DNA from: Candidatus Dadabacteria bacterium
GTDB lineage: Bacteria > Desulfobacterota_D > UBA1144 > Nemesobacterales > Nemesobacteraceae
Assembly: GCA_951812945.1 (NCBI GenBank)
Contig: CATOTB010000001.1
Span: 488,198 to 552,197, forward strand
DNA: 64,000 bases
Direction of reading: 5' to 3'
The notes below the pieces were generated by a model. The model did not search any database. It worked only from the letters and a program-made list of their open reading frames with translations, and was not told the origin of the DNA. Each line of letters opens with the position of its first letter. The stretch's first letter is position 1. Of this stretch, positions 22,055-63,926 are shown in pieces. Made by a program: the position numbers and the translations under genes.

Positions 22055-22077
22055 GGCGGTGTTTCCTCCATGTTAAA

Positions 22078-22474: not shown

Positions 22475-22504
22475 TACCGTTAAGTACTATTATGATGGAG
22501 CAAG

Positions 22505-22536
22505 TGGCTAGTTATAGGGGTAATTACCTAAATTTA
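22505..22536. repeat. 32-bp perfect inverted repeat, copy B
   Basis: exact reverse complement of 22078-22109. Confidence 0.7.
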
Positions 22537-22570
22537 AGAGCACTATTTATCTAACCGGATTCATGAAGAA

Positions 22571-44575: not shown

Positions 44576-45916
44576 TTGAAAATGAAAATAGCACGCTTGG
44601 GAAAACTGAGGAATCACCTTGGGGACAAGGGGAGTTATGTGATACGTATTGGAAAGGTGGTTACTAGAGCCTTGAATATATCGCGTGTTTTCATTGTGGC
44701 TGCAGGGCTTTTGCTGGGACTTCTGCTTATGGGAGGGCCTGCGGAGGTCAACACCCAGGAAACCAATGTCGAAGGTGACCTCAGGTTGGTGGACATGACT
44801 ACCGGTAATGTAGTGAGCCTTGTTATTGCTGTTGCGCCCTCGGGCAGGCTTGAAATGTTTGATGATGAAGATGGCGATGGTACCGGGGAATGGAAGGCAA
44901 TATGCGATGATTATCTGGGAGTGCTGGGAACACAAGAAAAAGGAAACCTTCGGGTAATCGGCAGGCAGGAGGCCGAGGTCGCATGCCGCCAGCTGGGCTA
45001 CTCGGGAGGTACCCCCATAACTGGGCTGACGTTGCCGGATGATATGGATTACCTGCTTGACAACCTTGAATGTGCGGGCTCTGAAGCAAGAATCTTCGGG
45101 GAGGGCAAATGCAGACACCAGCCGCGCGGAGAGCATGATTGCGAGAGCCAGAGAGCTTTTGGCGTCACATGTGAAGCTGCCACCTCAAATGACGATGCCG
45201 TAGGCAGGCTTGCAATCACGGGCGAAACTAAGGTGAGGCAGACACTTACCGCGGATCACACGGGTATTACCGACGAAGATGGCAAGCCGACTGAGGAGAC
45301 TTCTTTCAGCTATCAGTGGATCAGGGTTGATAATTACTGGAATGAAATCGAGATTCCCGGCGCGACGTCCTCCACCTATGTTCTTCAGGATGATGATGAG
45401 GAAAACTGGATCAAAGTGAAGCTTATCTTCACGGACGATGCTGGGAATGCGGAGGAGGTCTTCAGCTTTGAAGAGGGGCCTGTTTACACTGACAAGCCTG
45501 ACGGTTCCCTCCGGTTAAGGCCACTTAGGCTTAGTTATGATCTTGATGATGGTGCTACGCTCTCCGTGGACTCGGATCAATTCACTGGTATGGTCGAGAT
45601 ATTTGATGAGCCGGGCAGGAAATGGAAGGGAGTATGCGATGATGGGGCGGAGGATGAAAACCTGGGGTGGGGCACGGAAGAAGCGCAAGTAGCATGTCGC
45701 CAGCTGGGCTATTCGGGGGGAATTCCGATCACCGAGATAGATGGGACCACTTCTCCGCCGACCTATTTTCTGCTTGACGGGGTAGAATGCGACGGAACGG
45801 AGGAAAAGCTGCTTGATTGTGAACACGCGGAACGTGGAATTCACGATTGCACTTCACTGGAATATGCAGGTGTTTTTTGTGACGATCCGGATAGCAATGA
45901 CGACTCTTCAAGATAA
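44576..45916 (+). CDS. secreted/membrane-anchored protein with two SRCR (scavenger receptor cysteine-rich) domains
   Basis: two copies of the pattern GRLE(M/I)FD...W(K/G)..CDD.....EA.VACRQLGYSGG......ECxGxE..L..C.H...HDC; start codon ambiguous (internal TTG/GTG candidates precede a signal-like segment). Confidence 0.65.
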   Translation: MKMKIARLGKLRNHLGDKGSYVIRIGKVVTRALNISRVFIVAAGLLLGLLLMGGPAEVNTQETNVEGDLRLVDMTTGNVVSLVIAVAPSGRLEMFDDEDGDGTGEWKAICDDYLGVLGTQEKGNLRVIGRQEAEVACRQLGYSGGTPITGLTLPDDMDYLLDNLECAGSEARIFGEGKCRHQPRGEHDCESQRAFGVTCEAATSNDDAVGRLAITGETKVRQTLTADHTGITDEDGKPTEETSFSYQWIRVDNYWNEIEIPGATSSTYVLQDDDEENWIKVKLIFTDDAGNAEEVFSFEEGPVYTDKPDGSLRLRPLRLSYDLDDGATLSVDSDQFTGMVEIFDEPGRKWKGVCDDGAEDENLGWGTEEAQVACRQLGYSGGIPITEIDGTTSPPTYFLLDGVECDGTEEKLLDCEHAERGIHDCTSLEYAGVFCDDPDSNDDSSR

Positions 45917-46157: not shown

Positions 46158-46231
46158 TGGGGCGTCGTCTAAAGGCAGGACACCGGGTTTTGGTCCCGGT
46201 AGTGGGGGTTCGAGTCCTCCCGCCCCAGCCA
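46158..46231 (+). tRNA. tRNA-Gln (anticodon UUG), 3' CCA encoded
   Basis: hand-folded cloverleaf: 7-bp acceptor stem TGGGGCG/CGCCCCA, 5-bp anticodon stem CCGGG/CCCGG with loop TTTTGGT, T-loop GGTTCGAGTCC. Confidence 0.8.
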
Positions 46232-46252: not shown

Positions 46253-48379
46253 GTGCCAAAGAATTCTCTTAAAGGACTTAACTCTTCCCAGATAGATGCC
46301 GTGAGCCACGGAGAAGGTTCTCTGCTGGTGCTTGCGGGTCCAGGCTCGGGGAAAACCAGAGTCATAGCCCACCGAATCGCCTACCTGCTGAACGATCTTT
46401 CTGTTCCTCCCGGAAATATTCTGGCCGTTACTTTTACCAACAAGGCAGCCGCTGAGATGAAGAAAAGAGCGGGAGAACTGGCGGGCGATCGGACAAGCGG
46501 TATCTGGATCGGCACCTTCCACTCGATCTGTCTTCGAATTCTCAAAATAGAGGCGGATTTTCTTGAGGGCTACACGAAGGATTTTGTCGTCTACGACCAG
46601 AACGATCAGCTCGGTCTCATAAAAAGCTGCATGAAGGAACTTGACTACGGGGAGAGCCTTTTTTCGCCCAAGGGCGTGCTTTCCGAATTTGACGCCGTTG
46701 AGAACCGAGGAGAGGTGTTTTTCAAGGATGATTTTTACGGCCGCGCTCTTAGGGAACTTTATGATTTCTGCAAAAGCGAGCTCATAAAGCGAAACGCCAT
46801 GACTTTTAACGATCTGCTTCGCCTTGCGAATAAACTTCTTTCTGAAAACGAGGAAGTCCGCTCCCGCTACCAGGACAGGTTCTCTCACATACTTGTCGAC
46901 GAGTATCAGGACACGAACGTTGCTCAGTACAGCTTCGTAAAAACCCTCTCCCAGCGTCACCGAAGCCTTTTCGTGGTGGGCGATGACAGCCAGTCGATTT
47001 ACGGGTGGAGAGGGGCCGACATAAACAATATCTTGAACTTCGAGAGAGATTTTTCGGGGGCCAGGGTTGTTAAGCTTGAGCGCAACTATCGCTCGACGTC
47101 CACCATACTTGGCATAGCGAACTCGGTGGCAAGTAAAAACCTCGGTAGAAAGGAGAAAAATCTCTGGACCGAGAACTCAGAGGGAGAAAAAGCCGTGGTT
47201 TTCAGGGCTGGCGACAATGCGGATGAGGCGCGGTTTTTGGCGGAGCGGATTTCTCATCTGGTCGAGTCCGGGGGTTTTTCCTGGGGCGATGTGGGGGTTT
47301 TTTACAGGGCTAACTTTCAGTCAAGGGTAATTGAGGAGGGACTAAGAGCCGGGAGAATCCCCTACAGGATAGTATCGGGAGTCGGCTTTTATCAGAGGGC
47401 CGAAATAAAGGACATAGTTGCCTACCTGCGGCTGATTCAGAACTCGAGGGACGACGTAAGTTTTGAGAGAATAGTAAATGTTCCGCCGAGAAAAATAGGG
47501 GGAGCCACGCTTCAGAAATTGCGCGGAGTTTCGGAAGTGGGCGGATTCCCTCTTCTCGAAGCGATTGAATACTGCCAGGAGCAGAAGCTTCTCTCAAGCC
47601 GTGCGCTCGGCGCGCTCTCCCGGTTTCTTGACATCGTAAAGGAGCTTCGCTCGGCGGCGGAAAGCCAGCCTGCGGCTGGGGTTATCAAGAGGCTTGTTGA
47701 GCGCACCGGTTATCTGGATTACCTCGGGGAGGATCACCAAAGGGCGGAAAACGTGAAAGAACTCTTAAAAGCGGCTGAGGGCTTGGGGGATATGATCCTT
47801 TCTGATTTTCTCGACCTCGTGCTGCTCGCTACGGACGAGGACAGGGAGGACTCTGGAGAGGAAAAAGTTTCCCTGATGACAATTCACGCGGCCAAGGGGC
47901 TTGAGTTCCCCGTGGTGTTTGTGGTCGGGATAAACGAAGATTTGCTTCCCCACTATAGATCCGCAGGCACTCTTGAAGGACTTGAGGAAGAGAGAAGGCT
48001 TTTCTATGTAGCGATTACCCGCGCCAAGCGCCTGCTTTACCTCAGTTACGCTTCCCAAAAGACTGCTTCGAGTGGCGCATACAGTAGTGCTCGCGGGTCG
48101 GTTTTTCTGGATGACCTACCGCCGGAGCATGTAGTCTACGAATCCCGCAGGAAAGAAATTTCCGATAGGGGCTCCGACCGCTCTGCCGGTTCGTCCCCAC
48201 CCCCGCAAGAGTTTTGGGACGAAGGTAAAAGCTTAAAACCCGGCCAGAGGGTTACACACCACATCTTCGGTCCCGGGGTCATTAAACGGATTGAGGGTAA
48301 GGGAAATGAGGTAGTGGTCACGGTTGATTTTTTCGGCGCTGGCGTGAAAAAAATCGTTGCGAGTTATTTTACCGCCTAG
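46253..48379 (+). CDS. UvrD/PcrA/Rep-family ATP-dependent DNA helicase
   Basis: Walker A GPGSGKT, UvrD motifs throughout, C-terminal Tudor-like tail; start moved to GTG 46253 because the track ORF overlaps the tRNA. Confidence 0.88.
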   Translation: MPKNSLKGLNSSQIDAVSHGEGSLLVLAGPGSGKTRVIAHRIAYLLNDLSVPPGNILAVTFTNKAAAEMKKRAGELAGDRTSGIWIGTFHSICLRILKIEADFLEGYTKDFVVYDQNDQLGLIKSCMKELDYGESLFSPKGVLSEFDAVENRGEVFFKDDFYGRALRELYDFCKSELIKRNAMTFNDLLRLANKLLSENEEVRSRYQDRFSHILVDEYQDTNVAQYSFVKTLSQRHRSLFVVGDDSQSIYGWRGADINNILNFERDFSGARVVKLERNYRSTSTILGIANSVASKNLGRKEKNLWTENSEGEKAVVFRAGDNADEARFLAERISHLVESGGFSWGDVGVFYRANFQSRVIEEGLRAGRIPYRIVSGVGFYQRAEIKDIVAYLRLIQNSRDDVSFERIVNVPPRKIGGATLQKLRGVSEVGGFPLLEAIEYCQEQKLLSSRALGALSRFLDIVKELRSAAESQPAAGVIKRLVERTGYLDYLGEDHQRAENVKELLKAAEGLGDMILSDFLDLVLLATDEDREDSGEEKVSLMTIHAAKGLEFPVVFVVGINEDLLPHYRSAGTLEGLEEERRLFYVAITRAKRLLYLSYASQKTASSGAYSSARGSVFLDDLPPEHVVYESRRKEISDRGSDRSAGSSPPPQEFWDEGKSLKPGQRVTHHIFGPGVIKRIEGKGNEVVVTVDFFGAGVKKIVASYFTA

Positions 48380-49851
48380 GAGAGGCAGCTCACGACGAGG
48401 TTTTTGGCCCACTCGGGAGAATCCGCCGCGTAGCTCTCACACCCGGGCTGATCCGAGAAGGGATTCTCGAAGATCCTTCTTACTTTTTCTATCTCCGAAT
48501 AGTCTCCCTGTTCCAGAGCCTCCCTTATTGCGGTCTCCGTTATATGGTTTCTCAAGACGTACCTTGGATTGACGGAATCCATGCGCTTCTTTCTCTCGGG
48601 ATCAGGAAGCGAATTTTCCCTGAGTTCCCCGGCGTACTCACGGAACCACTGCTGCCATCGCTCTGAAGTTTCTGAGAGCTCCAAGAGCCACGGGTTTTCC
48701 CCGAAAGAACCGTCGCGCCTTACATCCGAGATGTTTCGAAGGAAGATATGGTAGTCTGTTTTGAATTCGGCGAGCACCCCTAGAGTCTTTTCGATGAACC
48801 GCAGGGATTCCTTTTTTTCCTTTTCAAAACCGAACTTGCGCAGCATGAGTTCTCTGTAGCTCTCGGAGAACGCCTTGTTGTAGGTCTCAATCGCGTTTAT
48901 GGCCTGTTCTTCGCCCGCAAGGCCGTCGAGGCATTTTGTGAATTTCTCAAGGTTCCACCGCGCGATTGCGGGCTGGTTTCCGTAGCTGTACCTGCCGAAA
49001 TGATCCGAGTGGTTTGAGACGTGATCCCTGTCGAACGTCTCGAGGAATCCGTACGGTCCGTAATCAATGGTAAGGCCCGTTACGGACATGTTGTCGGTGT
49101 TCATTACGCCGTGGGTGAAGCCGAAAGCCTGCCACTTTGCGATCGTGGAAGCCGTTTTTTCGGCCATTGCGGACAAAAAGAGCCCGTAGCCTTCCTCTGC
49201 TTGGCGGGGAATCTCGGGGTAATGGCGGGCGATTACGTAATCCGCAAGCGCCCGGACGTTTTCCGGTTCCCCCCGGTGATAAAAGCCTTCAAAAGAACCG
49301 AAACGCACGTGAGTTTCCGCGACCCGCAACATCATCGCGGCGGGTTCCCTGGTTTCCCTCTCGATTTTCTCCGTGCTTCCCACCACGCAGAGCGCCCTTG
49401 TGGACGGAATTCCCAGATGATGGAGAGCTTCGCTCCCGAGATACTCTCTTATGGAAGATCTGAGCGTTGCTCTTCCGTCAAAGCCTCTTGAAAATCTTGT
49501 GGTTCCGCACCCCTTGAGGTGAAGATCCCATCTGCGGTTGCGCTCGTCGATTATCTGCCCGAGCAGAAGCGCCCTTCCGTCTCCAAGGTGAGGGTTATAG
49601 ACCCCGAACTGCCACCCGGCGTAGTACATTGCGAGGGGGTCTGCGCCCGCAAGGGGTTTTTTTCCGCAGAGATACTCGGCCAGAAGGGGGTTTTGTTTTT
49701 CGCCGGAGTCTATGCCGAGTTCGTCGGCTAGGTTTTCATTGAACGCAACCACATGGGGGCTTTCAAAGGGGACAGGGTCTTTTTTCTGGTAGAACTCTGA
49801 CGGCAATTCCGCGTAAGCGTTTTCAAAGCGAAGGTTCGTTATTTTCCTCAT
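48376..49851 (-). CDS. selO: protein adenylyltransferase SelO (YdiU/UPF0061)
   Basis: full-length SelO family pattern, 491 aa. Confidence 0.82.
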   Translation of the reverse strand: MRKITNLRFENAYAELPSEFYQKKDPVPFESPHVVAFNENLADELGIDSGEKQNPLLAEYLCGKKPLAGADPLAMYYAGWQFGVYNPHLGDGRALLLGQIIDERNRRWDLHLKGCGTTRFSRGFDGRATLRSSIREYLGSEALHHLGIPSTRALCVVGSTEKIERETREPAAMMLRVAETHVRFGSFEGFYHRGEPENVRALADYVIARHYPEIPRQAEEGYGLFLSAMAEKTASTIAKWQAFGFTHGVMNTDNMSVTGLTIDYGPYGFLETFDRDHVSNHSDHFGRYSYGNQPAIARWNLEKFTKCLDGLAGEEQAINAIETYNKAFSESYRELMLRKFGFEKEKKESLRFIEKTLGVLAEFKTDYHIFLRNISDVRRDGSFGENPWLLELSETSERWQQWFREYAGELRENSLPDPERKKRMDSVNPRYVLRNHITETAIREALEQGDYSEIEKVRRIFENPFSDQPGCESYAADSPEWAKNLVVSCLS

Positions 49852-49978
49852 GTCGGGGCGTCTTCTGCCGCTTCGTTACCAAATTACGGAGGATTGAGGA
49901 ACTGGGGAAATCCTCGCACCCAGCCGTGGAATACCCGCCGGTCCCTGTAAATGAAGTATAATGTTTTCTGGAGAGAGT

Positions 49979-50263
49979 ATGAAATACAGAAAAAACAAGA
50001 TAAAAACCGAACATTCGATAATAAAGGGACTTCGCCGTTTTCTTGAAGATAATGTCTCGGGCCTTGACCACGTGACGGGAATTATTCCCGGGGAAATAAA
50101 GGTGGGTCGCGCCACGGGGGAGAATCTCGCGGTGAGCTACAAGTACAACACCCTAAGCGGGGCCAAGCTCATAGCGAGAAGCGGAACCTCGGTGCAGGAG
50201 GTATTCATTATCACTAAAAACCCCGAGGAACTGAAAACGGTTATAGAGCTTTCAGGCAAATGA
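49979..50263 (+). CDS. small hypothetical protein
   Basis: ORF with GGAGAG RBS before ATG 49979. Confidence 0.35.
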   Translation: MKYRKNKIKTEHSIIKGLRRFLEDNVSGLDHVTGIIPGEIKVGRATGENLAVSYKYNTLSGAKLIARSGTSVQEVFIITKNPEELKTVIELSGK

Positions 50264-53200
50264 GCTTTCCCTGAGGGTCACCGCTCCTTGACCGAGCAGA
50301 CCTTCAACGTTTTCTATAAGCTTATTCCCTAAGTCAACCTTGCAGTTTCCGACCCTCAAAACGGCCTCTGAGCGGTCGGTTTTAATGTTTATTATCACGG
50401 TTGAGTTTCCTGGGAACTTCTCAAGAATTTCTCTCAGGCTGAGTATGTTCTGCTCGCTTGCGGATTCACGCGCGATACTTATGCAGACGGCAGAGTTCGT
50501 TCTGGCTTCTTTTAGCGAAGAAATGTCGCTTGCGAGAAGACGCACCTTTTCATCCGAGACCTCCACCCTTCCTTTTACCACTACCGGCTCGACCTTCTGC
50601 TCCAGAAGCACTCGCGATCTCTGCAGGGCGTCATTAAAAACGATTGCTTCTGTGAACCCGTTTAGATCTTCGAGGGTCAGATAGCCGATAAAGCTGGTTC
50701 CTTTCCTGGTGTTTTTGATTTCGATCGATCTCACCACCCCGGCAATTCTCACCTCAGAACCGTCTTTTGCCTGCTTTATGGATTCGGTGTCGTGAAGAGG
50801 GCTGTATTTTTCAAGCTCCAAAGAGTATTTTTGAAGCGGGTGGGAGGATATGAAGAACCCGAGCACGTCAAGCTCGTTCTCAAGCCTGATGCGGTCGTCC
50901 CACGGTTCGCTTTCCTCAAGCGTCGGAGCGGACACGGAATTTGGGAGGTCAAACAGCATTCCCTGCCCGTTTGTCGGCGTGTGATGTTTTATGGAGTTAT
51001 ACTCGAGCAGAGACTCGCGGGAAGCAAACAACCGCGCCCTGCTCGGTTCGAGGGAATCGAAAGCGCCCCCCATCACCAGGCTTTCAAACGCCTTTTTGTT
51101 AAGATTTTTTGAATTCACTCTGGCGCAGAAGTCGGTAACGGATTCGAACACCCCGTCTTTTTCCCTGGTTCTGACTATTTCCTCTATCAGGCTGTTGCCG
51201 ACGTATTTGATCGCCGTGAACCCGAACAGTATTTTCCCTTCTGAAACCGTGAATCCCGAGCAGCTGCGGTTTATGTCCGGCTGCAGCACGTCGATTCCGA
51301 GCCTTCTGCACTCGGTTATGCCGGAGATTACCTTGTCCATGTTATGTGCCTCGACGGACATGAAGGCCGCCATGAATTCCGCCGGGTAGTGCGACTTGAG
51401 GTAGGCCGTCTGGTAGGTGATCATGGCGTAGGCGGCGCTGTGACTTTTGTTAAAGGAGTATTCGGCGAACTTTTCCATAGTGTCGAAAAGCTCGGCGGCT
51501 TTTTTGGGCTCGATGTCTTTTTTCTCCGCTCCCGTGAGAAACCTTTTGCGCTGGGCTCTCATTTCGCTTGATTTTTTCTTGCCCATTGCCCTCCGGAGAA
51601 GGTCCGCTTCCCCCATGGTGAAACCCGCAAGCTCGCTTGCCGTCTGCATTATCTGCTCCTGGTAAACGAAAAGGCCGTAGGTCTCCCCAAGTATTTCCCG
51701 AAGCGCCGGGTGCGGGAAATCTACCTTTCTCCCGTTTTTTCTCTTGGTGAACTCATCCACCATGCCGCTGTCGAGGGGACCGGGACGGTAAAGCGCCAGA
51801 GCGGCCGTTATATCTTCGAAGTCCGCGGGGCGGAGTTTCGCGAGAAGGTCTTTCATCCCCGCGGATTCAACCTGGAATATTCCCATAGTCGCGCCTTCGC
51901 TCAGCAGGCTGTAGACCTTCGGGTCGTCAAGGGAAATTCTGTCCAGGTCGAATTCTTTTTCGTTCTTTTTCTGGTTTTCCCGAACGTACTTCACCGCCTT
52001 GTCGAGAATGGTAAGGGTCTTTAGGCCCAGGAAATCGAATTTCACGTAACCCAATTTCTCTATGGAGCTCATGTCGAACTGGGTTACGACCTCGTTTTTA
52101 CTTCCCCTGTAAAGGGGTATGTAGTCGGCCAACGGTTCGTTCGATATCACTACGCCCGCGGCGTGAGTCGAGGAATGGCGCACCATGTTCTCAAGCGATC
52201 TCGCAAGTTCCACCACTTCGGCGAGCTGCTTGTTCTCGGAAATACGCTCCTTTATTTCTTTTACCTTGCTCACGGCCTCCTCTATGCTGAACACCTTTCC
52301 CCGGAAAGAGGGAATCATTTTCGAGAGGCGGTCGACTTCCGCATACGGAAGTCCCAGGACTCTTCCCACGTCCTTTATCACGGCTTTTGAGGACATGGTT
52401 CCGAAGGTTCCTATCTGCGCCACCTTTTCCGCACCGTATTTCTCCGTCACGTATCTTATAACTTCGTCCCGGTGCTCCCCGCAGAAATCAACGTCTATGT
52501 CGGGCATGCTTATCCTTTCCGGATTCAGGAACCTCTCGAAAATAAGGTTGTGTCTTATTGGATCAAGCGCCGTTATGCCGAGGGCGTATGCGACCAGGCT
52601 CCCGGCGGCGCTTCCCCGCCCCGGTCCCACGGGGATATCGTTTTTCCTGGCGTGGAATATAAAGTCGGAGACCACCAGGAAATACGCGGAAAACCCCATC
52701 TTGCAGATGGTGTCAAGTTCGGAGTTAAGACGCTCCCGGTAGGCCTTGTGGTCCTCTTCTGGTATTTCGTTTTCCCGGAGTATTCTCTCGAGATTTTTGC
52801 CCGAAATCTCCCGCATGAATTCGTCGAGAGATTTTCCCTTCGGAGGGACGTATTCGGGAAATCTGTACCCGTCGCTTTTGAATTCGAAGTCGCAGCGCTC
52901 AGAAATTCTCACCGCCTCTTCAAGGGCATCCTCAAAGCCCTCCATGTCACGGGCCATCTCATCCCTGGTCTTAACGAAGAAGTCGTCGCTTTGGAACCTC
53001 ATTCTTTTCTGATCCGCCACCATGCTCCCTGTCTGGATGCACAGAAGCGCGTCGTGCGACTTGTAATCCTCCCTGGTGAGAAAATGACAGTCGTTGGTAG
53101 CGGCGAGCTTTATGCCGAGGCGCTCACCGATCCTGCGAAGCCCCCTGTTGATCCTGCGCTGCTCCTCAAGGGCGATTGCCTGGACTTCAAGATAGTAGCG

Positions 53201-53701
53201 GTCCCCGAATATCTCCTTGTAGATCGACGCGATTTTTGTCTGTTCCTTTAAGTCTTTTTTGAAAATTGCCTGGGAAAGTTCGCTGCTCATGCACCCGGAG
53301 AGGACTATGAGTCCCTCGTTGTGCTCAGAGAGCATCTCGTGATCCACGCGCGGGCGGCGGTAAAATCCCTCGAAGTATCCCTTAGTTACGAGCCTTGAGA
53401 GATTCCTGTACCCCTGCTCGTTCATGCAGAGCACCGTGAGGTGATAATTCTTCCCGTCAGAGGGTTTCTCAAGCTTAAGAGTGGGGGTTACGTAGAGCTC
53501 GCATCCTATTATGGGCTTTACGCCTCGGGCCTTGGCTTTTTCGAAAAACTCATACGCGCCGAAGAGGTTTCCGTGGTCAGTACAGGCAACGGCGGGCATG
53601 GAGTGGCGCTCGGCTCTTTCGATCAGTTCGTCGAACTTTATCGAACCGTCAAGGAGCGAATACTGCGAGTGTAGATGTAGGTGAACGAAGGAGTCTGCCA
53701 T
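50252..53701 (-). CDS. dnaE: DNA polymerase III alpha subunit
   Basis: 1149 aa; N-terminal PHP domain (HLHLHSQYSLLDG), polymerase core, OB domain. Confidence 0.93.
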   Translation of the reverse strand: MADSFVHLHLHSQYSLLDGSIKFDELIERAERHSMPAVACTDHGNLFGAYEFFEKAKARGVKPIIGCELYVTPTLKLEKPSDGKNYHLTVLCMNEQGYRNLSRLVTKGYFEGFYRRPRVDHEMLSEHNEGLIVLSGCMSSELSQAIFKKDLKEQTKIASIYKEIFGDRYYLEVQAIALEEQRRINRGLRRIGERLGIKLAATNDCHFLTREDYKSHDALLCIQTGSMVADQKRMRFQSDDFFVKTRDEMARDMEGFEDALEEAVRISERCDFEFKSDGYRFPEYVPPKGKSLDEFMREISGKNLERILRENEIPEEDHKAYRERLNSELDTICKMGFSAYFLVVSDFIFHARKNDIPVGPGRGSAAGSLVAYALGITALDPIRHNLIFERFLNPERISMPDIDVDFCGEHRDEVIRYVTEKYGAEKVAQIGTFGTMSSKAVIKDVGRVLGLPYAEVDRLSKMIPSFRGKVFSIEEAVSKVKEIKERISENKQLAEVVELARSLENMVRHSSTHAAGVVISNEPLADYIPLYRGSKNEVVTQFDMSSIEKLGYVKFDFLGLKTLTILDKAVKYVRENQKKNEKEFDLDRISLDDPKVYSLLSEGATMGIFQVESAGMKDLLAKLRPADFEDITAALALYRPGPLDSGMVDEFTKRKNGRKVDFPHPALREILGETYGLFVYQEQIMQTASELAGFTMGEADLLRRAMGKKKSSEMRAQRKRFLTGAEKKDIEPKKAAELFDTMEKFAEYSFNKSHSAAYAMITYQTAYLKSHYPAEFMAAFMSVEAHNMDKVISGITECRRLGIDVLQPDINRSCSGFTVSEGKILFGFTAIKYVGNSLIEEIVRTREKDGVFESVTDFCARVNSKNLNKKAFESLVMGGAFDSLEPSRARLFASRESLLEYNSIKHHTPTNGQGMLFDLPNSVSAPTLEESEPWDDRIRLENELDVLGFFISSHPLQKYSLELEKYSPLHDTESIKQAKDGSEVRIAGVVRSIEIKNTRKGTSFIGYLTLEDLNGFTEAIVFNDALQRSRVLLEQKVEPVVVKGRVEVSDEKVRLLASDISSLKEARTNSAVCISIARESASEQNILSLREILEKFPGNSTVIINIKTDRSEAVLRVGNCKVDLGNKLIENVEGLLGQGAVTLRESSFA

Positions 53702-53836
53702 TGCGGGTTTACAACATTAAATTATACATTTTCCTTCGGTTTCATCCAGTGGTGGAAGAAAATGACAACCGGGCTTTAATCAAGTAAATTAGAGAGTCCG
53801 GTTACGGACAAAACGGGTGGTTAAATCTTTTACGTC

Positions 53837-55373
53837 ATGCACGAGGAAACGGAGTTCAAGCTCTCCCTTTCGCCCGCAGTGGCGAATCGGATTTTGCGTT
53901 ACAAGGGACTCAGGCCCCACCGCAAGGGCCGCCGTGTAAAGCACCGTTTAGTAAGCACCTACTTCGATACTCCCCGCCACGCGCTAAGAAAATCCGAGAT
54001 AGTGCTTAGGGTGCGCGATAACGGCAAGGGCAGGGAACAGACTGTAAAGGCGCCGTTCCAGGGTCCCGCGGGCCTTCAGAATTTCCGTGAATGGACCGTG
54101 GCGGTAAACGGTGACTGTCCGAATCTTTGTGCCGTGGACGACCCTGCGCTCGCGCGCAAGCTCTCCCGCGGGCGTTACGAAAAGCGCCTAAGCCCTCTGT
54201 TCACCACTGACTTTGAGCGCGAAGCAGTTCGCATAAGGGTCCGGGGCACCGAATTCGAGCTTGCGGTTGATCAAGGGATCATTCGCGCCGAAACGCGCGG
54301 GGGGGACAGTTGAGGAACCCATATGCGAAGCGGAATTCGAACTGCTCTCAGGGGACCCGGCGCGGATGTTCGATGTGGCTCTTGAACTCTGCGAGGCTTA
54401 TGACATACGCCTCGGCCACCTTACCAAGGCGCAAAGGGGCTACGCACTCACGAGACCGGCGCTCCGTCCCAGACCCTGCAAGGCCCCGAAGGTTGTGCTC
54501 ACGGAGGAGATGAGCGTAGGAAAGGCGTTTAACTTCATCATTGCCGGCGCGCTTGAGCACATGTTTGCAAACGAGACCCCGACCCTGGAGGGAAGGGCGG
54601 AGGGGGTCCACCAGACGAGGGTGGCCATGAGGCGCGTGCGCGCGGCGCTTCGGGCTTTCAAGAGAATACTTCCGTACGACAAGCGAAAGGCGTTTAACGG
54701 AGAGTTCCGCTGGTTCCAGCAACGACTGGCCCCGGCCCGCGACTGGCAGGTCTTTTTGAGCGAAACGCTTCCAAAGATAGCCGCTGCCGCTCCCGAGCAG
54801 GAAGAAGCGATAAAGCGCCTTCGGCGCATCGCGCGCGCCGAGCGCCGCCGCGCCGTGGGAGACGCTGCCGCTTACCTTGATAGCCGCCGCTACGCCCGGC
54901 TGCTTCTTCAGTTCGAGCGATGGATCGCGTCTGTGGAGAAGGAGGTCGGCTCAAAGACTTTCGACGAGCCCGTAAAGCCGTTTGCAAGAAGCGTCCTCAG
55001 GAGAACGTGGCGCTATTTCCTTGAGGATACGAGGCCTCTTTCACGCCTTCCTGACGAGGATCTTCACGAAATAAGAAAACGGGGGAAAAAGGCCCGCTAC
55101 GCAACGCAGTTTTTCAACTCGCTCTGGACCGGTTCCCGGGTTCCGCCCTTCATGAAGCTCATGGGACGCTTCCAGGACAGCCTTGGAAAGACAAATGACG
55201 CGATAGTGGCGCGGCACATCCTGGCGGCGGTTAAGCCGGGGAGGCTCGATCCCTCGGTAATCCATCTTGCGCAGGAGTGGTCCCAGGCCCGGGTGAGAAA
55301 ATGCCTTCGCACGGCGCAGCCGCAGTGGAGGCGCCTCGGGAGAGTTGCGCCGTTTTGGGAGGCGGCGGAGTGA
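53837..55373 (+). CDS. CYTH-CHAD domain protein interrupted by a frameshift in a G7 tract (two ORFs: 53837-54313 and 54261-55373)
   Basis: the CYTH domain continues across the frame change (…AVDQGIIRAETRGG | TVEEPICEAEFELLSGD…); CHAD domain in the second ORF. Confidence 0.6.
54299..54305 (+). repeat. homopolymeric G7 tract at the CYTH-CHAD frameshift site
   Basis: read directly. Confidence 0.7.
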
Positions 55374-55461
55374 GTCCCGCTTTTCACGTGGAGAAGAATT
55401 ATGTAAACTCACGGATTGTGGGTGTTAAGACGCTGTATGTTGTTTCCCCAGGAGGTTACAG

Positions 55462-57621
55462 ATGGCTTCTTCTATAACGGACATCTCGAGCAAGAGGGCC
55501 CCTGCCGGTTTTTCCAAAAAGGAAAAATATCTTAACAGGGAGCTTTCTTGGCTTGACTTTAACCTTAGGGTTCTTGAGACGGCGGCAGACAAGAAGGTTC
55601 CGCTTCTTGAGAGGGTGCGCTTTCTCTCCATCTCCGCTAGCAACCTCGATGAGTTCTACATGGTCAGGGTGGCGGGTCTTGCGGGACAGGTTATGGAGGG
55701 AGTTACAGATCGCAGCAAAGACGGCCTTACTGCGTCGCAGCAGCTTGAAGCGATAAGGGAGAAGGTGCACTTCCTGCTTGACAGCCAGTACGAGTGCGAA
55801 AAGGACTTGTTTTCCCTCTGCAAGAAGGCCAAGATCAAGATCGTAACTCCCGAGAAACTCGACCGCTCGGGCGCCAGATGGCTTTCCGAGTGGTTCTCTA
55901 AAAAGCTTTTTCCGGTGCTTACCCCGCTTGCCATAGACCCAGCGCATCCGTTTCCCTTCATACAGAGTGGGAGCCTTGTGTGCGCCGTGCAGCTGAGCCG
56001 CGCCGAGGACGGAAAGCGCATGAAGGGTCTCATAATTCTGCCTTCTCAGGTTGAGCGCTTCATAAGGGTTCCGGGAGGAAAAAAAACCCAATTTGTCCCG
56101 ATCGAGAAGGTCATCGAGCACAACATGAAATCCCTTTTCCCGGGTTTTGAAGTGGATGACAACGGGATCTTCCAGATCACCCGAGACAGCCTTCTTGAGA
56201 TAGACGAAGACGCGGAAGATCTGGTCGAGACGTTTGAAACTGCCCTTAAGCAGCAACGCAGGGGAGGGTCAGTGATCAGGGTTGACGTCAACGCGGACAT
56301 GCCGGATGCGATCGTCAACTTCATAATGGACAAGCTTGAGGCCAGTGACGCGCATTTTTTCAGAATCAAGGGGATGCTCGGGCTTGAAAGCGTGAAACAG
56401 ATAATACTCGATGAGCGAAGCGACCTTCTTTACAAGCGCATGAGTATCCGCTACCCCGAGCGGGTCAGAGAATTCGGAGGCGACGTGATAGCCGCCATAC
56501 GGCAGAAGGATTTCGTCGTTCACCATCCCTACGAGAGTTTCGACGTCGTCGTTGAGTTCCTCAAGCAGGCAGCCGAGGATCCGGCGGTCGTTGCGATCAA
56601 GCAGACGCTTTACCGCACCTCGGAAGACTCTCCGATAGTGAAAAGGCTCATAGAAGCTGCTGAGGCCGGAAAATCCGTAACTGCCATGGTGGAGCTCAAG
56701 GCCCGTTTCGATGAGGAGGCCAACATCCGCTGGGCGCAACGCCTCGAGGATGCGGGAGTCCAGGTTGTGTTCGGATTCATTGACCTTAAAACACACGCCA
56801 AGGTATCGCTGGTAGTGAGAAGGGAAGGTTCTGACATCCGTACCTACACCCACTATGGCACCGGCAACTATCACCCCGTAAACGCCAAGATATACACAGA
56901 CCTCAGCTACTTCACAGCCGACGAGGCGCTCGGCCGCGACGCCGCCAAGCTTTTTAACTACATGACCGGCTATGCCACTCCGAAGAAGATGGAGAGGATA
57001 TTTTTCTCTCCCGTCACGATGCGCCCGAAGGTGCTTGAGCTTATAAGGGACGAGATAGACCATGCGAAGGCCGGCCGCCCCGCGGTGATATGGGCCAAGA
57101 TGAATTCCCTTGTGGACAGCAAGATAATAGACGCGCTTTACGCGGCGAGTTGCGCGGGGGTAAGAATTGAGCTTTTCGTTCGGGGAATATGCTGCCTGAG
57201 GCCCGGGGTGCCGGGGCTCTCCGAGAATATCAGGGTAAAGAGCATTGTGGGGCGTTTCCTTGAGCACAGCAGGGTTATCTGCTTTGGCGCCGGGGAGGGG
57301 CTTCCTTCTAATGCCTGCAAGGTCCTCATCTCGTCTGCGGACTGGATGCCCCGTAATCTTGACCGCAGGGTGGAGTCGCTTGTTCCAATTGAAAACGCCA
57401 CGGTGAAAAAGCAGCTTGTCGAGCAGGTGATGGTTGCTAACCTAAATGATGTCGCGAACAGCTGGGAGATGCTCCCTGATGGTTCTTTCCGCAAGCTAAA
57501 AAGCGATTCGGACAGTTTTTCGGCTCATAAATACTTTATGACCAACCCCAGTCTTTCAGGAAGAGGCAAAGCGCTTGCCAAATCCCGGCCGCAAATGCCG
57601 GCTGAGTTTGTGCAGGAATAA
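55462..57621 (+). CDS. ppk: polyphosphate kinase 1
   Basis: 719 aa; PPK1 N, head and two PLD-like C-terminal domains. Confidence 0.93.
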   Translation: MASSITDISSKRAPAGFSKKEKYLNRELSWLDFNLRVLETAADKKVPLLERVRFLSISASNLDEFYMVRVAGLAGQVMEGVTDRSKDGLTASQQLEAIREKVHFLLDSQYECEKDLFSLCKKAKIKIVTPEKLDRSGARWLSEWFSKKLFPVLTPLAIDPAHPFPFIQSGSLVCAVQLSRAEDGKRMKGLIILPSQVERFIRVPGGKKTQFVPIEKVIEHNMKSLFPGFEVDDNGIFQITRDSLLEIDEDAEDLVETFETALKQQRRGGSVIRVDVNADMPDAIVNFIMDKLEASDAHFFRIKGMLGLESVKQIILDERSDLLYKRMSIRYPERVREFGGDVIAAIRQKDFVVHHPYESFDVVVEFLKQAAEDPAVVAIKQTLYRTSEDSPIVKRLIEAAEAGKSVTAMVELKARFDEEANIRWAQRLEDAGVQVVFGFIDLKTHAKVSLVVRREGSDIRTYTHYGTGNYHPVNAKIYTDLSYFTADEALGRDAAKLFNYMTGYATPKKMERIFFSPVTMRPKVLELIRDEIDHAKAGRPAVIWAKMNSLVDSKIIDALYAASCAGVRIELFVRGICCLRPGVPGLSENIRVKSIVGRFLEHSRVICFGAGEGLPSNACKVLISSADWMPRNLDRRVESLVPIENATVKKQLVEQVMVANLNDVANSWEMLPDGSFRKLKSDSDSFSAHKYFMTNPSLSGRGKALAKSRPQMPAEFVQE

Positions 57622-57625
57622 CTCT

Positions 57626-59154
57626 ATGACAGAAATTTCTTCCTCCGCCGCGCCCTTCGGCAAGGTCGGAACCGCGGCCGTAATAGACGTAGGATCAAAC
57701 TCCATACGTCTTGTGATCTACAAGGGCCCGAGGCGCGCCCCGCTTCCAATACTTGATGAGAAGGTTTCCTGCGGCTTGGGGCGCGGGATGGACTCTCGGG
57801 GCAGGATGTCTCCGCAGAGCATGGATCTCGCCCTGCGAACTGTAAGCCGCTTTGTCGATATCGCGCGCTCGATGAAGGTTTCCGGAATAAAGGCGGTTGC
57901 CACCGCCGCGGTGAGAAACGCCTCAAACGGCTCCGACTTCAAAGAGGCTGTTGAGCAGCAATGCGGGATTTCACTTCGGGTGCTCTCTGGCATGGACGAG
58001 GCAAGGCTTTCCGCGCTCGGTACTCTCTGCGCCATTCCTGACGCTGACGGCGTAATGGGGGATATAGGCGGCGGAAGCCTTGAGTTGGTAGAGATTTGCG
58101 AAGGGGAATTAGGAAACCACGCCACGTTACCGCTTGGCACGATCCCGCTTCTTGAAAGCGGCCTGAGTCCCGTAAAGGCCCGAAAGAAACTGATTGTCCC
58201 CCTCCTTGACGAGCTTTCCTGGCTTGAGAACGCGAAAAAGAAAACCTTCTACGCCGTCGGGGGTTCGTGGCGAGCTCTTGCTAAAAAACACATGGAATCT
58301 GAGGATTATCCGCTTCGCATAGTTCACGGCTACAGTCTTTCGAGATCCAAGGCGGTTGAGATGTCCGGGAGATAGCCGAGATGTCTTCGGGTTCGCTTCA
58401 GGATCTCTGGACCCTGGGGCGAAACAGGGTGGAGTCCGCTCCCTACGCCGCCACGCTTATGAAGAGTCTTCTGAAAAAAACGGGCGTTAACAACCTCATG
58501 TTTTGCACGTACGGGCTTCGGGAGGGATGTATATACGACGATCTTTCCCCGGAGCAGAGTTCTCTGGATCCGCTGGTTGTCATGTGCGAGGAAATCGCCC
58601 TTAAGATGGGAAGGTCCGTTGAGGACGGCAAGGCTTTCTGCAAGTGGATAGAGGCGGCAATTCCAGATAAATACGCCGGAGACTCGAGGCTTAGGCTCGC
58701 CGCATGCCATCTCTCGGACATAGGAATTTCCGAGCATCCGGAATACCGGGCGGAGCAGGTGTTTTTAAGGATACTGCGGATGCCGCTTGTGGGAATCACT
58801 CATCCGGAGAGGGTGAAGGTGGCTCTCTCGGTATCTTCAAGACACGCGGCAATAGGAAACCTGATTCGCCGCTGGGAAGTTTCCGGGTTTCTTTCCAATG
58901 ATGATGTGGAGGAAGCCAGGGTTACGGGGCTTGCTCTTCGTCTGGCTTACACGGTCTCGGGAGGGGTGGCGCGGATTCTTGAGAGTACCAGGCTTGAGAG
59001 AGCCGGGAAAAAGCTTGCTTTGCATATGCCTGGCCAGATTCCTCACCCGGAAACCGTCGGTCGCCGTCTGGGGGCCCTTGCAAAGGCCGTCGGATGCGAT
59101 TATGAGACGATTGCGCGGGATCAAGCTAATGAAACCGCTGGGTGGGGAACTTAG
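57626..59154 (+). CDS. ppx: Ppx/GppA-family exopolyphosphatase, split into two ORFs by a frameshift near 58345-58395 (57626-58375 and 58381-59154)
   Basis: N-terminal actin-like Ppx-GppA domain (VIDVGSNSIRLVIY) in ORF 1; the continuation (…GLREGCIYDDL) and HD-like region in ORF 2 are in another frame. Confidence 0.65.
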
Positions 59155-59203
59155 ATTCGTGTAGAATTCCCTCTGACTTTTAGCTGTTTGCTGGTCGGAT
59201 CTG

Positions 59204-60106
59204 ATGAATTTACTTGACGCAATAGACAACCTGAATATCTGGAAGCAAGGGGACAAAAGAGCTCCTCACAAGCCTCTACTTCTTCTATATGCGCTCGCTG
59301 AACAAGTCCGAAATCCAGACGCTAGGTTTGAGTTTTTTCGTATAGAAGAAAATATTGATCAGTTATTAAATGATTTTTACAAATCATTTCCCGGACGCAG
59401 ACACCATGTAAATGATCCTTTCTGGCGCCTTCGCGGGGATGGAATCTGGAAAGTAGAATCCGACGGAATAATAAGGGAAACCAGTTCAGGAGGTGCTTAT
59501 GTAAGCGATTTAAGGAAATACAATGCTACGGGTTCGTTTTCTAAAGGGGTTGTTCAAGAGATAAGAAATAATCCTGAAGTTGCTTTGCAGGCCGCACGGA
59601 AACTGCTTAATGAACATTTTCCCGAATCATTGCATCAAGATATACTGGAGACTGTAGGATTAGATTACAAGACAATTTCTGCTAAAGAATACATTTCTAA
59701 AAAAACTAAAAGAGACAGTACATTTCGGCAGAAGGTTCTTCACGCCTACGGTTACAGTTGTGCGGTGTGCGGGTTTAATCTGCGCATGAAAACTCTTCCT
59801 GTCGGACTGGAAGCGGCGCATATCAAGTGGCATCAGCATGGAGGACCAGATGCTGAAAACAACGGACTGGCACTATGCGCCACGCACCACAAGTTGCTTG
59901 ACTCGGGGGTGCTGGCACTCTCTGACAATTACCAAATCATTCTTTCAGAGTGGATATTTGATCCCGACCGAAAAAACAGTTTTATACGGGAGCATCATAA
60001 CCGTGAAATCAGATTGCCTAGGAACAGCAACCATTTGCCCAAAATGGATTATATCCGCTGGCACAGAAAAGAAGTGTTTAAAGAACCCGAACTAGTTTTG
60101 ATTTAG
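59204..60106 (+). CDS. McrA-like HNH endonuclease with an uncharacterised N-terminal domain (candidate modification-dependent restriction enzyme)
   Basis: C-terminal HNH: CAVCGF...LEAAHIKWHQHGGPDAENNGLALCATHHKLLDSG; N-terminal domain with KAPHKPLLLLYAL; AT-rich. Confidence 0.65.
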   Translation: MNLLDAIDNLNIWKQGDKRAPHKPLLLLYALAEQVRNPDARFEFFRIEENIDQLLNDFYKSFPGRRHHVNDPFWRLRGDGIWKVESDGIIRETSSGGAYVSDLRKYNATGSFSKGVVQEIRNNPEVALQAARKLLNEHFPESLHQDILETVGLDYKTISAKEYISKKTKRDSTFRQKVLHAYGYSCAVCGFNLRMKTLPVGLEAAHIKWHQHGGPDAENNGLALCATHHKLLDSGVLALSDNYQIILSEWIFDPDRKNSFIREHHNREIRLPRNSNHLPKMDYIRWHRKEVFKEPELVLI

Positions 60107-60539
60107 TAGTACTAAGTGAAATAAATTCTCAAATCTGATTGCGAGATGCGGCAATACGAAGAAAAAGCCTTTTTTGATTCTTGAGATACTGCCAAGATAA
60201 AGTGATAGCAACAATCTGTATGGAACTTTCAACGTCGCAACAATCTCTGGGCATGCCAAGTCTTAATCGTGCATGGTTGCTTGGAATCTTGGCCAACATC
60301 TCTTCATGAGATCGTTGCCGATGTACTGTGATAAAAGGAATTTGAATTGTTCGGTATGTACTTCTTTAAGCTTATTACCAAACGAATGATCAAGGCATGT
60401 GTAGGCAGTTCCTCAAAACACCGAAAAGAACTGACAAAGGAGATGCCGCTTGGAAACAAATGGGTGGTTTAGGGCGGCATTACAGTTGTTGCCACCATGC
60501 TGGAGAGAACCCTGACGAGGCAAACACAGGAGTATTGCG

Positions 60540-61586
60540 ATGAATCGAACGAAAGTATTTCTTGATTCCAACATCTTAATCCAAGCGGGGAAACCACCGG
60601 GTGGGCCGGTCCTCGAACGGTTGAAGCATTTGGTTAATGCCGGTCTTGTAACTGTGCTGACCACGGATCTGACCTGCCGGGAGGTTGCGAAGAAGCATAC
60701 TGAAAACGACTACAATGTCATAAAAGAAGTTGGACAACCTCATTTCCGCAATATAGTTAAGGACATACTGGGCACCAAGTTTCCCAAAATCACTAAAAGC
60801 AAACTGAAAACCAAACTTGCCAAGTCATACAGGCAATCCACCGAGGCTATGCTCACTGAGCTCAACTGCAGAATGCTGAAAATTGACGATATTAAACCTT
60901 CCAAAGTGTTATTTTCTTACACTAACGGAGAGGGGTTCTTTGCTGGAGAGGCAAAAAAGGAACAATTTCCCGACGCTTTTATCTTCGAGTGTCTCAAGGC
61001 CGAAGCGTCAGGGGAAGAATCGATTATAGTTGTCTCGAATGACCGTGATTTCAAAAAACCGGTCGAGGATGAGGCTCACATCTCGCTCGTGAAATCCTTG
61101 CCCGAACTCTTTGAAAGGATGGGTCTTAAAATTGACGCACCCGACATGGAGGGTTTCCTTGAGTGTCATGAGGGTAAGTTGTTTGAAGCGGTCAACGAAG
61201 AGTTGAATTGCTGGGGATTCGTTGGAGATGTTCCAGACTCCGAGATTGAAGAGACAACAGTAACTGATGTGAGAGTAATTAAACTCGCAAGTTTCGGGTC
61301 GACTGAGAAAAGAGGCTCAATTCTGATAGTCGGTCGTCTCCATGTGAGAGCGGAGATTTCATATGCCCATCCGGACTGGGATACCGCAATGTACAGCGAC
61401 GACGATATCCTTGTCTGGATTAATGATGAGCGCGTGAGTGGCGAGACTGAAGTCGGCTTCAATGTGGATGTGTCGATGTCGGTAGCGGTGGATAAAAACG
61501 ACAATCCCAAGAGCATTGAAGAACTGCGTTTCCTAAACGGCGACTTTCAGCATATCGAGCTCCACAGTGATCATTATCACGATTAG
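60540..61586 (+). CDS. PIN-like nuclease domain protein with C-terminal domain of unknown function
   Basis: PIN signature acidic residues (VFLDSNILI ... IVVSNDRDF); GGAG RBS. Confidence 0.55.
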   Translation: MNRTKVFLDSNILIQAGKPPGGPVLERLKHLVNAGLVTVLTTDLTCREVAKKHTENDYNVIKEVGQPHFRNIVKDILGTKFPKITKSKLKTKLAKSYRQSTEAMLTELNCRMLKIDDIKPSKVLFSYTNGEGFFAGEAKKEQFPDAFIFECLKAEASGEESIIVVSNDRDFKKPVEDEAHISLVKSLPELFERMGLKIDAPDMEGFLECHEGKLFEAVNEELNCWGFVGDVPDSEIEETTVTDVRVIKLASFGSTEKRGSILIVGRLHVRAEISYAHPDWDTAMYSDDDILVWINDERVSGETEVGFNVDVSMSVAVDKNDNPKSIEELRFLNGDFQHIELHSDHYHD

Positions 61587-61642
61587 CGGAAACGCAGTCT
61601 GGGAAAAACAATGTCTTGCGTCAATCAACATGACTCAAGTTT

Positions 61643-62293
61643 ATGAACAGGGTAAAATCCTCTGGATTCCAGGTTGAGGTATGGATTAACATGTTGCCCG
61701 ACTTTCCTAAGATAAAGAAAGACATCCATAAGAAATTGCTTATCCCATATGCCAAGCACAAGAGGGCATCACGTCTGGGGATTTTGAACCAAATGACCTT
61801 AATAAAAGTGCATGAAGGCAATAATAGTCGGATCCTCAGAAGCGACAAAACTCAAGATACGGCGAGACCGAATGATATTTCAGGAAGCTTTTCATATGAA
61901 CTTTCCGATATAAAAGATATGACGATAGAAGATGTTTTTAGGAATATAGACGATGCAACGGAAGAGCTTACTATTAAACTGATTGATCATGTCGTGAATA
62001 AAGTCGAAACCGTCTGCGAAGAAACGGGCAACGTACTAAATCTTAACAACAAGAAATTTACCGCCGTTCACTACCTTGAACTTCTTGAAAAACTTGAAAT
62101 AAGATTCGATTGTAACGGAGATCCGATTTTGCCGGATGCTCTTGTGGGTGCTTCACTTGATCCAAAGGCTATAAAAGAAGAGATGCAAAAAACACAAAAG
62201 GATGAAACGCTTCGAAAAAGATTTGCCGAAATCATAAGCAAGAAAAGAGAAGAGCATAATGCTAGAGAGGGTAATAGAGAACTGGTTAGATAA
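61643..62293 (+). CDS. hypothetical protein (probable start ATG 61691)
   Basis: ORF overlapping the downstream gene by 35 nt; no family I recognise. Confidence 0.4.
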   Translation: MNRVKSSGFQVEVWINMLPDFPKIKKDIHKKLLIPYAKHKRASRLGILNQMTLIKVHEGNNSRILRSDKTQDTARPNDISGSFSYELSDIKDMTIEDVFRNIDDATEELTIKLIDHVVNKVETVCEETGNVLNLNNKKFTAVHYLELLEKLEIRFDCNGDPILPDALVGASLDPKAIKEEMQKTQKDETLRKRFAEIISKKREEHNAREGNRELVR

Positions 62294-63926
62294 CGTGACG
62301 GAAAGATCGTTTGAGAACTCTTTTTGTCACATGCTTGCTTACCGAGGCTACACCGTTTTACACAAGACCAGGCATACCGGACTGGAAATGGGCAAGGATG
62401 TAATTGCCGTAGCGGAAGACGGCGTCCCTTGTGTTTTTCAGTTGAAAACCGCGGTGAACGGAACCATAAAACAGCGATACTGGACTGATAACATACAGAA
62501 TCAAGTTATTACGATGATCAATACCAAACCGATCCATCCAGCTTTGAAAGACTATAGCCACCACAGATCTTATTTTGTTACGAACGGAAAAATAGAAGAA
62601 GAGGTAACGCGGCAGATAGATGATTTAAACAGAAGGTTTGAAGCTCAGGGATGTGGACATAAAAAATTGGAAGTAATTGTCAAAGGTCAGTTGTCGGCAT
62701 GGGCAAAAGAACTGGAAACGGACTTGTGGCCGTCGGAACTGACAGACGTTCGGCTGCTTCTTGAACTCTTTCTTGAAGATGGAAAAGATGTTCTTGATAA
62801 AGCAAAGCTGTCCCGGCTTCTTGAGGCCTGCGTTAATTTTGAAAGCCATCCGAATAAAAAGGAGTCGAAAAGAGCAGTCTCGAGTTTAGCCCTCTTAAAC
62901 GCTGTTGCCGTAAGCAACTATTCGAACTCGAAGAACTACGTTGCCGAGATTGAAGCATGGGTGATCTACATGTCTTATTTATTTGCTTATGCTGAAAAAT
63001 GGAAAATTGGAAAGAAAATCTGGTCTGAAGAATTTAACATTGCGAAGAATTATATTGGTCAGCTTCTGGGAGAGCTTTATAAGGAAGTAAAATCCTCCAA
63101 ATTTTATATCGAGGGTGACCCAAGCACAGAACCATTTCTTATTTACCCTATACGGATTACATACTTGATTTCTCTTATGAGCATTTTCTCTTTATGGGCT
63201 GAATGTGAAAATTTTGACGACAATGAAGAAATAAATGAGTTCTGCAGGGAGTTCTGTTTAAAAAACAAAGACTATATGCTTTTGTGGGGAGAGGCCGCTG
63301 TACCTCAGTACTTATCATTCTACTGGTATTACAGCAAAATTGACGCAACCATCTCACCCTCTAATTTCTTATTAGGTGCTATTGGACAAATTATTGCGTT
63401 AAACAAGCCCAAGAACTTGCCAAAACAAGAAAATGTTTTCAGGGGAAACGAACACTTGTACCTTCCGCAAAACGATGGGATAGCGAACGCTTATTACAAT
63501 TCTAATGAATTATTGCCATATCTGCTCGGAATAAACGATGAACCGATTGAGGATCATTTTTTAGAACGCTCCCAAACTTTATGGGCTTTAATTGAGATTT
63601 ACGTCCGCTTGAATTTTCAAAGACCGGTATTCATGTTCTGGAAAGATGCAACATACATTAGCGAGGTTGAATTCAAGCCCAAATACAAATGGCATTTCTT
63701 TAGATGGAAAAATGATGAGGGAGAAGTGGTAGAAGAACAGAAAAATGGGCAAAAATGGCCTGAATTAAGAAAGCAAGTTCAAGAAATTGATTACAGGAAT
63801 ATTCCAGAAAAATTCAAGAAAGAACCTATATTGTTTTTGTTGTTTTTATGTGTATATCCCCATCGCATCTCTACTTCAATTGTGAAATGGCTTGATAGCG
63901 AAATCCGTGAACAAGAAACTGATTAG
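62259..63926 (+). CDS. protein with N-terminal Mrr-like PD-(D/E)xK nuclease domain and about 450-aa C-terminal region of unknown function
   Basis: FENSFCHMLAYRGYTVLHKTRHTGLEMGKDVIAVAEDGVPCVFQLK fits the Mrr_cat pattern (D...D/E-x-K as GKDVIA...FQLK); remainder has no family I recognise. Confidence 0.5.
   Translation: MLERVIENWLDNVTERSFENSFCHMLAYRGYTVLHKTRHTGLEMGKDVIAVAEDGVPCVFQLKTAVNGTIKQRYWTDNIQNQVITMINTKPIHPALKDYSHHRSYFVTNGKIEEEVTRQIDDLNRRFEAQGCGHKKLEVIVKGQLSAWAKELETDLWPSELTDVRLLLELFLEDGKDVLDKAKLSRLLEACVNFESHPNKKESKRAVSSLALLNAVAVSNYSNSKNYVAEIEAWVIYMSYLFAYAEKWKIGKKIWSEEFNIAKNYIGQLLGELYKEVKSSKFYIEGDPSTEPFLIYPIRITYLISLMSIFSLWAECENFDDNEEINEFCREFCLKNKDYMLLWGEAAVPQYLSFYWYYSKIDATISPSNFLLGAIGQIIALNKPKNLPKQENVFRGNEHLYLPQNDGIANAYYNSNELLPYLLGINDEPIEDHFLERSQTLWALIEIYVRLNFQRPVFMFWKDATYISEVEFKPKYKWHFFRWKNDEGEVVEEQKNGQKWPELRKQVQEIDYRNIPEKFKKEPILFLLFLCVYPHRISTSIVKWLDSEIREQETD

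Follow-up and report, generated by a model that had tools for sequence, protein, structure and literature searches.

A ppx gene read in two frames through one missing C in the polyphosphate operon of a Candidatus Dadabacteria genome

Background

The closest described counterparts of the gene considered here encode the Ppx/GppA family phosphatases of other Candidatus Dadabacteria (P0001, P0002 and P0124), proteins of 509-513 aa that share 97-98% amino acid identity with the repaired protein of the present locus. The Ppx loci of Candidatus Dadabacteria MAGs have the same two Pfam domains, the same operon and the same 4-nt gap between ppk1 and ppx as the window, by which we mean the whole 64,000-nucleotide stretch of DNA that was analysed. 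More distant are the long Ppx/GppA enzymes with solved structures, 8GTY/8GTZ ('Ppx/GppA phosphatase') and 3HI0 ('putative exopolyphosphatase'), whose alignment to the repaired protein (residues 15-488, E = 3e-78) takes in its ASKHA core as well as its helical C-terminal domain; they are distant relatives of the window protein, itself a putative phosphatase. The PPX and GppA of E. coli (1U6Z, NF008108, NF008260) have the N-terminal ASKHA domain in common with it, with residues 18-155 aligning, and belong to a different subfamily, their profiles giving weak partial matches (41-51 bits vs. cutoffs of 624-864).

The split ppx gene

The genome is of the Candidatus Dadabacteria type, and its ppx gene closes a conserved operon in which it follows CYTH-CHAD and ppk1. 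It is written as two plus-strand ORFs that together make up one Ppx/GppA-family protein, as the earlier note on this DNA had recognized: a 5' fragment in frame 2 (57626-58375; 249 codons and a TAG at 58373-58375) and a 3' fragment in frame 1 (58360-59154), which is open from 58360 and has its first ATG at 58381 (58381-59154 if counted from there). Pfam PF02541 (Ppx-GppA) matches the 5' ORF with 115.6 bits over profile positions 10-218 of 285, and PF21697 (Ppx_C) matches the 3' ORF with 67.5 bits, both above the gathering cutoff of 27. The two domains do not share one uninterrupted frame; the frame changes at 58365-58366 and the TAG follows at 58373, so that the final two residues of the 5' fragment (G and R) are out-of-frame products of the deletion.

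The NCBIfam profile TIGR03706 is divided in the same way, its positions 2-237 falling on the 5' ORF and positions 249-299 on residues 5-55 of the 3' ORF, while on the repaired protein it gives an unbroken match over residues 17-307, the stretch to which the two-domain Aquifex enzyme 1T6C also aligns. By both comparisons the ASKHA domain does not end at the TAG, as had been supposed for the actin-like domain, and runs some 60 residues into the 3' ORF, which encodes the final ~55-60 residues of that domain together with the Ppx_C domain. The continuation is indeed in a different frame, but it does not restart at ATG 58381, which is an internal Met of the intact protein. The nucleotide/phosphate-binding loops of the catalytic domain, DxGSNS (D21, G23, S24, N25 and S26) and DxGGGS (D146, G148, G149, G150 and S151), are invariant in a 16-sequence alignment that includes the window. 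The split ppx is certainly one ordinary gene, with an ASKHA catalytic domain and a Ppx_C domain. As written, it should give an inactive 249-aa product, because the catalytic domain would be cut short and the C-terminal domain absent altogether.

A search with the joined protein returned over 60 clusters of Ppx/GppA proteins from Candidatus Dadabacteria, 498-530 aa long and up to 97% identical; the repaired protein itself (509 aa) is 97% identical to P0001 and 98.4% identical to P0124. The curated TIGR03706 ('exo_poly_only') cutoff of 307 bits is reached neither by the fragments (231.2 and 27.6 bits) nor by the repaired protein (276.7 bits). The product is a member of the Ppx/GppA family and a putative exopolyphosphatase, with polyphosphate, rather than pppGpp, as a possible substrate. 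The exact N-terminal fragment (P0135) is present in the public protein collection, as is the ppk1 product (P0137), both on the same 937,352-bp NCBI/ENA contig.

The missing base was placed by alignment to intact Ppx, one of the checks that the earlier note had proposed. DNA was fetched for 20 related loci (nine of them chromosome-scale MAG records with OY/OZ accessions), and 18 of these cover the lesion site. All 18 are contiguous there and the lesion is unique to the window, which has CC at 58365-58366 of the plus strand where relatives have CCC (CCCGGG to CCGGG), a loss of one C and a -1 change of frame. In the DNA alignment, CCC is found in 16 of the 18 (GATGTCCCGGGAG or GATGGCCCGGGAG, against GATGTCCGGGAG in the window), these same 16 reading GATG(T/G/A)CCCGGGAG at the site; the remaining two have a base substitution with the length unchanged. 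The 95 nt around the lesion are otherwise identical between the window and four relatives, and putting a C back at 58365-58366 gives an open frame of 509 codons. The relatives' proteins cross the junction unbroken, with ..SRSKAVEMSREIAEMSSGSL.. in the protein alignment and likewise ..AVEMSREIAEMSSGSL.. around ATG 58381. The remark that there is no homopolymer at the break holds insofar as the run is short, yet the lesion is a C3-to-C2 run change abutting GGG; since it is a change of run length, the further remark that slippage is less obvious here than for CYTH-CHAD is weakened. A scan of metagenome contigs that accepted both alleles gave only the intact one, twice, and no independent assembly of the same strain was found in the collections, where identity reaches at most 98.4% for ppx and 97.2% for ppk1.

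The substitutions in the gene bear on the age of the lesion. By the Nei-Gojobori method, dN/dS between the repaired ppx and its close relatives is 0.24-0.32, and that of an intact pair of relatives is 0.295; omega is about 0.06-0.14 for ppk1, CYTH-CHAD and dnaE. The ppx codon changes private to the window comprise 12 synonymous and 3 non-synonymous ones, and none of the latter falls after the break. An ageing pseudogene would carry more disabling lesions or a raised dN/dS, and this gene has a single lesion and an ordinary omega. The earlier suggestion of relaxed selection on polyphosphate turnover is unsupported in its long-standing form, omega being like that of the intact pair and ppk1 and CYTH-CHAD standing at about 0.1. 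Because the substitutions show no decay, the ppx lesion must have arisen very recently or else be an error of the consensus.

The operon and its neighbors

The ppk1 gene (55462-57621, plus strand) is intact, encodes 719 aa (TIGR03705, 908 bits; NF003919, 1134 bits) and has its stop 4 nt upstream of the ppx ATG; it is contiguous in all 19 of the loci surveyed for it. The CYTH-CHAD gene (53837-55373, plus strand), by contrast, is split by a +1 insertion, with the Pfam CYTH and CHAD domains on two ORFs in different frames (53837-54313 and 54261-55373, respectively). The window reads CGCGGGGGGGACAGTTGAGG where relatives are one base shorter. Under the simplest repair the extra base lies in a G7 run (54299-54305, plus strand) that was originally G6, and the removal of one G gives a CYTH-CHAD protein of 511 aa, the length of the relatives' single protein. 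The earlier description of two frameshifted genes in one polyphosphate cluster was therefore accurate, CYTH-CHAD and ppx each being read in two frames and ppk1 in one. Upstream of CYTH-CHAD, on the minus strand, lies dnaE.

Directly downstream of ppx is a variable island (59204-63926, plus strand) with an HNH_2 (McrA-like) nuclease, a PIN_12 protein and two ORFs that have no family match. Its content differs in each relative: methyltransferase, HipA, AbiEii and GmrSD genes in locus L001, Dnd-like, SNF2 and GmrSD genes in L019, and no island at all in L002, where ppx is followed straight away by an AMP-binding gene. Compared with locus L008, the stretch 47600-59170 is a mosaic, with identities of 94-96% at 48.1-49.6 kb, 83-90% over dnaE and CYTH-CHAD, and 92-99% over ppk1 and ppx, while dS falls from 0.55 in dnaE to 0.07 in ppx; the pattern is due either to recombination among lineages or to a consensus that is a chimera of strains.

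Frame problems across the window

Three frame problems were found in the 64 kb, all of them at G/C runs: C9 at 19250, G7 at 54299 and C2 at 58365. Two of the three are within the polyphosphate operon and the third is outside it. Some 45 other ORFs have full-length domain matches, among them all neighboring pairs on one strand in which a split might be concealed, and an assembly riddled with errors throughout is rejected on this ground. The other runs in the window comprise nine A8/T8 runs, one C7 and fifteen G/C 6-mers, and every ORF checked around these is intact. A systematic error at CCCGGG (for instance a methylation-linked one) was also considered and rejected, given that the window has CCCGGG at 22 other sites.

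The third problem concerns the region 19234-20480, where the C9 tract (19250-19258) lies five codons past ATG 19234 and shifts this start out of frame with an ORF for a DNA methyltransferase (N6_N4_Mtase)-HNH fusion, the conserved N-terminus of which can be read upstream of the first in-frame ATG. With a C10 or a C7 tract the start and the ORF would be joined in a single frame of 415 or 414 aa, respectively; the tract is either phase-variable or another homopolymer-length miscall.

Several further features of the window were recorded. A mobile-element patch at 20768-22550 contains an intact IS1595-family transposase and then an N-terminal transposase remnant (21869-22054, minus strand), which from our own reading of its translation we take to be IS256-like; inverted repeats of about 31 nt lie at ~22080-22110 and 22497-22530, with a non-coding G7 run at 22195. 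An ORF at 29250-30743 encodes a ThyX-type thymidylate synthase of 497 aa, about twice the usual length, with two Thy1 stretches, and a 446-aa protein encoded at 44576-45916 has eukaryote-like scavenger-receptor cysteine-rich (SRCR) domains of the SCRC type. The tRNA-Gln (ttg) gene at 46158-46231 overlaps the first possible start codon of a UvrD-like ORF, and the start of that helicase must therefore be further downstream.

Frameshifts in related loci

Of particular relevance is L019 (OZ246948.1), an independent chromosome-scale MAG with 85.6% nucleotide identity to the window. Its ppx (10001-11583) is split into 231 and 305 aa by the loss of a G in GAAAAAGAAG (position 10615), and its CYTH-CHAD gene (6208-7866) has one additional nucleotide 23 codons before the stop, while its ppk1 is intact; both lesion sites are unlike those of the window. 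The private changes in L019 ppx, 28 synonymous and 5 non-synonymous, show no decay. Downstream of that ppx no clear further frameshift was seen, an adjacent ParB_N / HTH_ParB pair being ambiguous. In L006 (JGIcombinedJ30088_10003909), the closest relative over ppk1-ppx (95% nucleotide identity), a T insertion at 2735-2745 splits ppx; the contig contains 20 single N calls, including 8 within ppx, which weakens it as a clean independent case. The only frameshift outside ppx and CYTH-CHAD among the conserved genes surveyed is in L011 (OZ220700.1), where it lies close to the 5' end (~13100-13250) of the AMP-binding (acyl-CoA synthetase-like) gene that is found downstream of ppx. No breaks were seen in dnaE, selO or ppk1 in any locus surveyed.

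In the loci that had not been chosen for intactness (L006-L020), ppx and CYTH-CHAD account for about 24% of the surveyed sequence and for three of the four frameshifts (rough binomial p ~0.045, a marginal value from a test framed after the pattern had been seen). Six other Dadabacteria-like Ppx fragments are present in the protein collection, and the four that were traced are all on long-read contigs labelled 2x-4x, with names of the type given by the metaMDBG assembler. These fragments were set aside as evidence of recurrence, being a biased sample that was chosen for being fragments and that lies on 2x-4x contigs.

Origin of the missing base

We lean slightly towards an uncorrected run-length miscall, or the calling of a minor variant, in a long-read metagenome consensus as the source of the missing C, and would give it about an even chance; a localised sequence-quality problem was also one of the two readings offered in the earlier note. 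A consensus miscall would have dropped one C from the CCC of ppx, after which the frame reads Gly-Arg-stop; the same type of error would explain the G7 run of CYTH-CHAD and the C9 tract at 19250. The miscall is favored because every lesion is a fresh single-base change at a run and because the third lesion lies outside the operon. The young look of the lesions also counts towards it, since errors always look young, whereas true pseudogenes are expected to be of varied age; the equally fresh ppx of L019 (28 to 5) and the sporadic frameshift of L011 were counted on the same side. Also counted for it were the 937-kb source contig, the nine chromosome-scale MAG records among the related loci, and the finding of all four traced Ppx fragments on 2x-4x long-read contigs. 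The polishing of metaMDBG is described as fixing mainly homopolymer errors ('mostly homopolymers') (PMC11392814). Other points weigh against a miscall. One in HiFi data would seldom be expected at a run of 3 bases; the rest of the window is clean, so that the assembly is not generally error-prone; and two of the three frame problems are in one operon, with the same two genes frameshifted in L019 and ppk1 intact there.

Alternatively, and with a probability that we put somewhat below even, the deletion is real, a very recent loss-of-function mutation that is fixed or at high frequency in the symbiont population. It may then belong to a recurrent loss of ppx and CYTH-CHAD, genes for the degradation of polyphosphate or otherwise associated with it, with the synthase gene ppk1 kept, favoring the hoarding of polyphosphate. 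Such a mutation would fit the cleanness of the remaining window, its longer homopolymers included, and the location of the lesions in two functionally linked genes. The independent occurrence of the same pair of frameshifts in L019, again next to an intact ppk1, is suggestive and not decisive, and L006 would add a third independent ppx frameshift, but with a consensus as poor as that noted above. The concentration of three of four frameshifts in ppx and CYTH-CHAD points the same way, with the reservation that the test was post hoc and its result marginal. In close comparisons (L001-L008) the omega of ppx is about twice that of its neighbors (0.295 vs. 0.15-0.18), and Candidatus Dadabacteria have been reported among the ppk1-carrying polyphosphate accumulators in sponges (PMC13431277). 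Against a real mutation, each lesion is a single-base one unaccompanied by secondary decay, and ppx is neither deleted nor eroded in any relative; the deletion allele is in none of the other assemblies scanned, and the third frame problem of the window is outside the polyphosphate cluster. The wider proposal that sponge-associated Dadabacteria repeatedly knock out ppx and CYTH-CHAD and keep ppk1 (here and in OZ246948.1), so becoming one-way polyphosphate accumulators, we consider unlikely.

Far less probable still is deliberate expression of the two ORFs, either through a programmed -1 frameshift that would give full-length Ppx or through a stop and restart that would give a split enzyme of two polypeptides. 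Programmed frameshifting is known in dnaX (-1 type) and prfB (+1 type), and such genes, like the window ppx, have two overlapping frames for one protein. ATG 58381 does have a Shine-Dalgarno-like GGGAG 9 nt upstream of it and the TAG 5 nt upstream. This is the sole support for the idea, and it is there by chance, GGGAG and ATG being ordinary in-frame codons (R-E-I-A-E-M) in every relative. Direct reading of the 16-nt overlap at 58360-58375 (GAG ATG TCC GGG AGA TAG) finds no X XXY YYZ heptamer, and the downstream 85 nt fold like their shuffles (-30.2 vs. a mean of -29.3 kcal/mol, z = -0.24). The shift is conserved in none of the 18 relatives at the site. As for a split enzyme, the break at residue 247 is inside ASKHA domain II (core 17-307) and not at a domain boundary, and the other split copies of ppx (L006 and L019) break elsewhere, with no recurrence of position. 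Unlike the genes of the dnaX and prfB type, then, the window ppx has neither a slippery site nor a stable stimulatory structure downstream nor a conserved shift; recoding is rejected on these grounds, and the split is certainly neither a recoding signal nor a split enzyme.

A 20-bp tandem duplication in place of the single-base loss has a negligible probability: GAGATGTC is present twice, 20 nt apart (at 58359.. and again at 58379), and removing 20 nt also reopens the frame, but all close relatives have both copies, in frame, so that the pair is ancestral, the only difference in length is one C, and the very residues that a duplication would have us delete occupy the 11 TIGR03706 positions that separate the fragments.

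Significance

A single-base frameshift in a well-known gene family is ordinary, of the kind that annotation pipelines flag as 'frameshifted'. The practical value of the present case is as a quality flag for the assembly, with its three G/C-run frame problems in 64 kb, and as a caution that polyphosphate metabolism should not be read from the source MAG before a check of the reads. Should the pair of lesions in ppx and CYTH-CHAD prove real in two lineages, they would provide a modest lead on phosphorus storage in sponge symbionts.

Comparison with known systems

The lesions of the window resemble the residual homopolymer-length errors of long-read metagenome assemblies in being single-base run-length changes at G/C runs; they differ in that the C3 run of ppx is short and the rest of the window clean. 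Set against the Ppx genes of other Candidatus Dadabacteria, the window copy is one C short and is consequently read in two frames.
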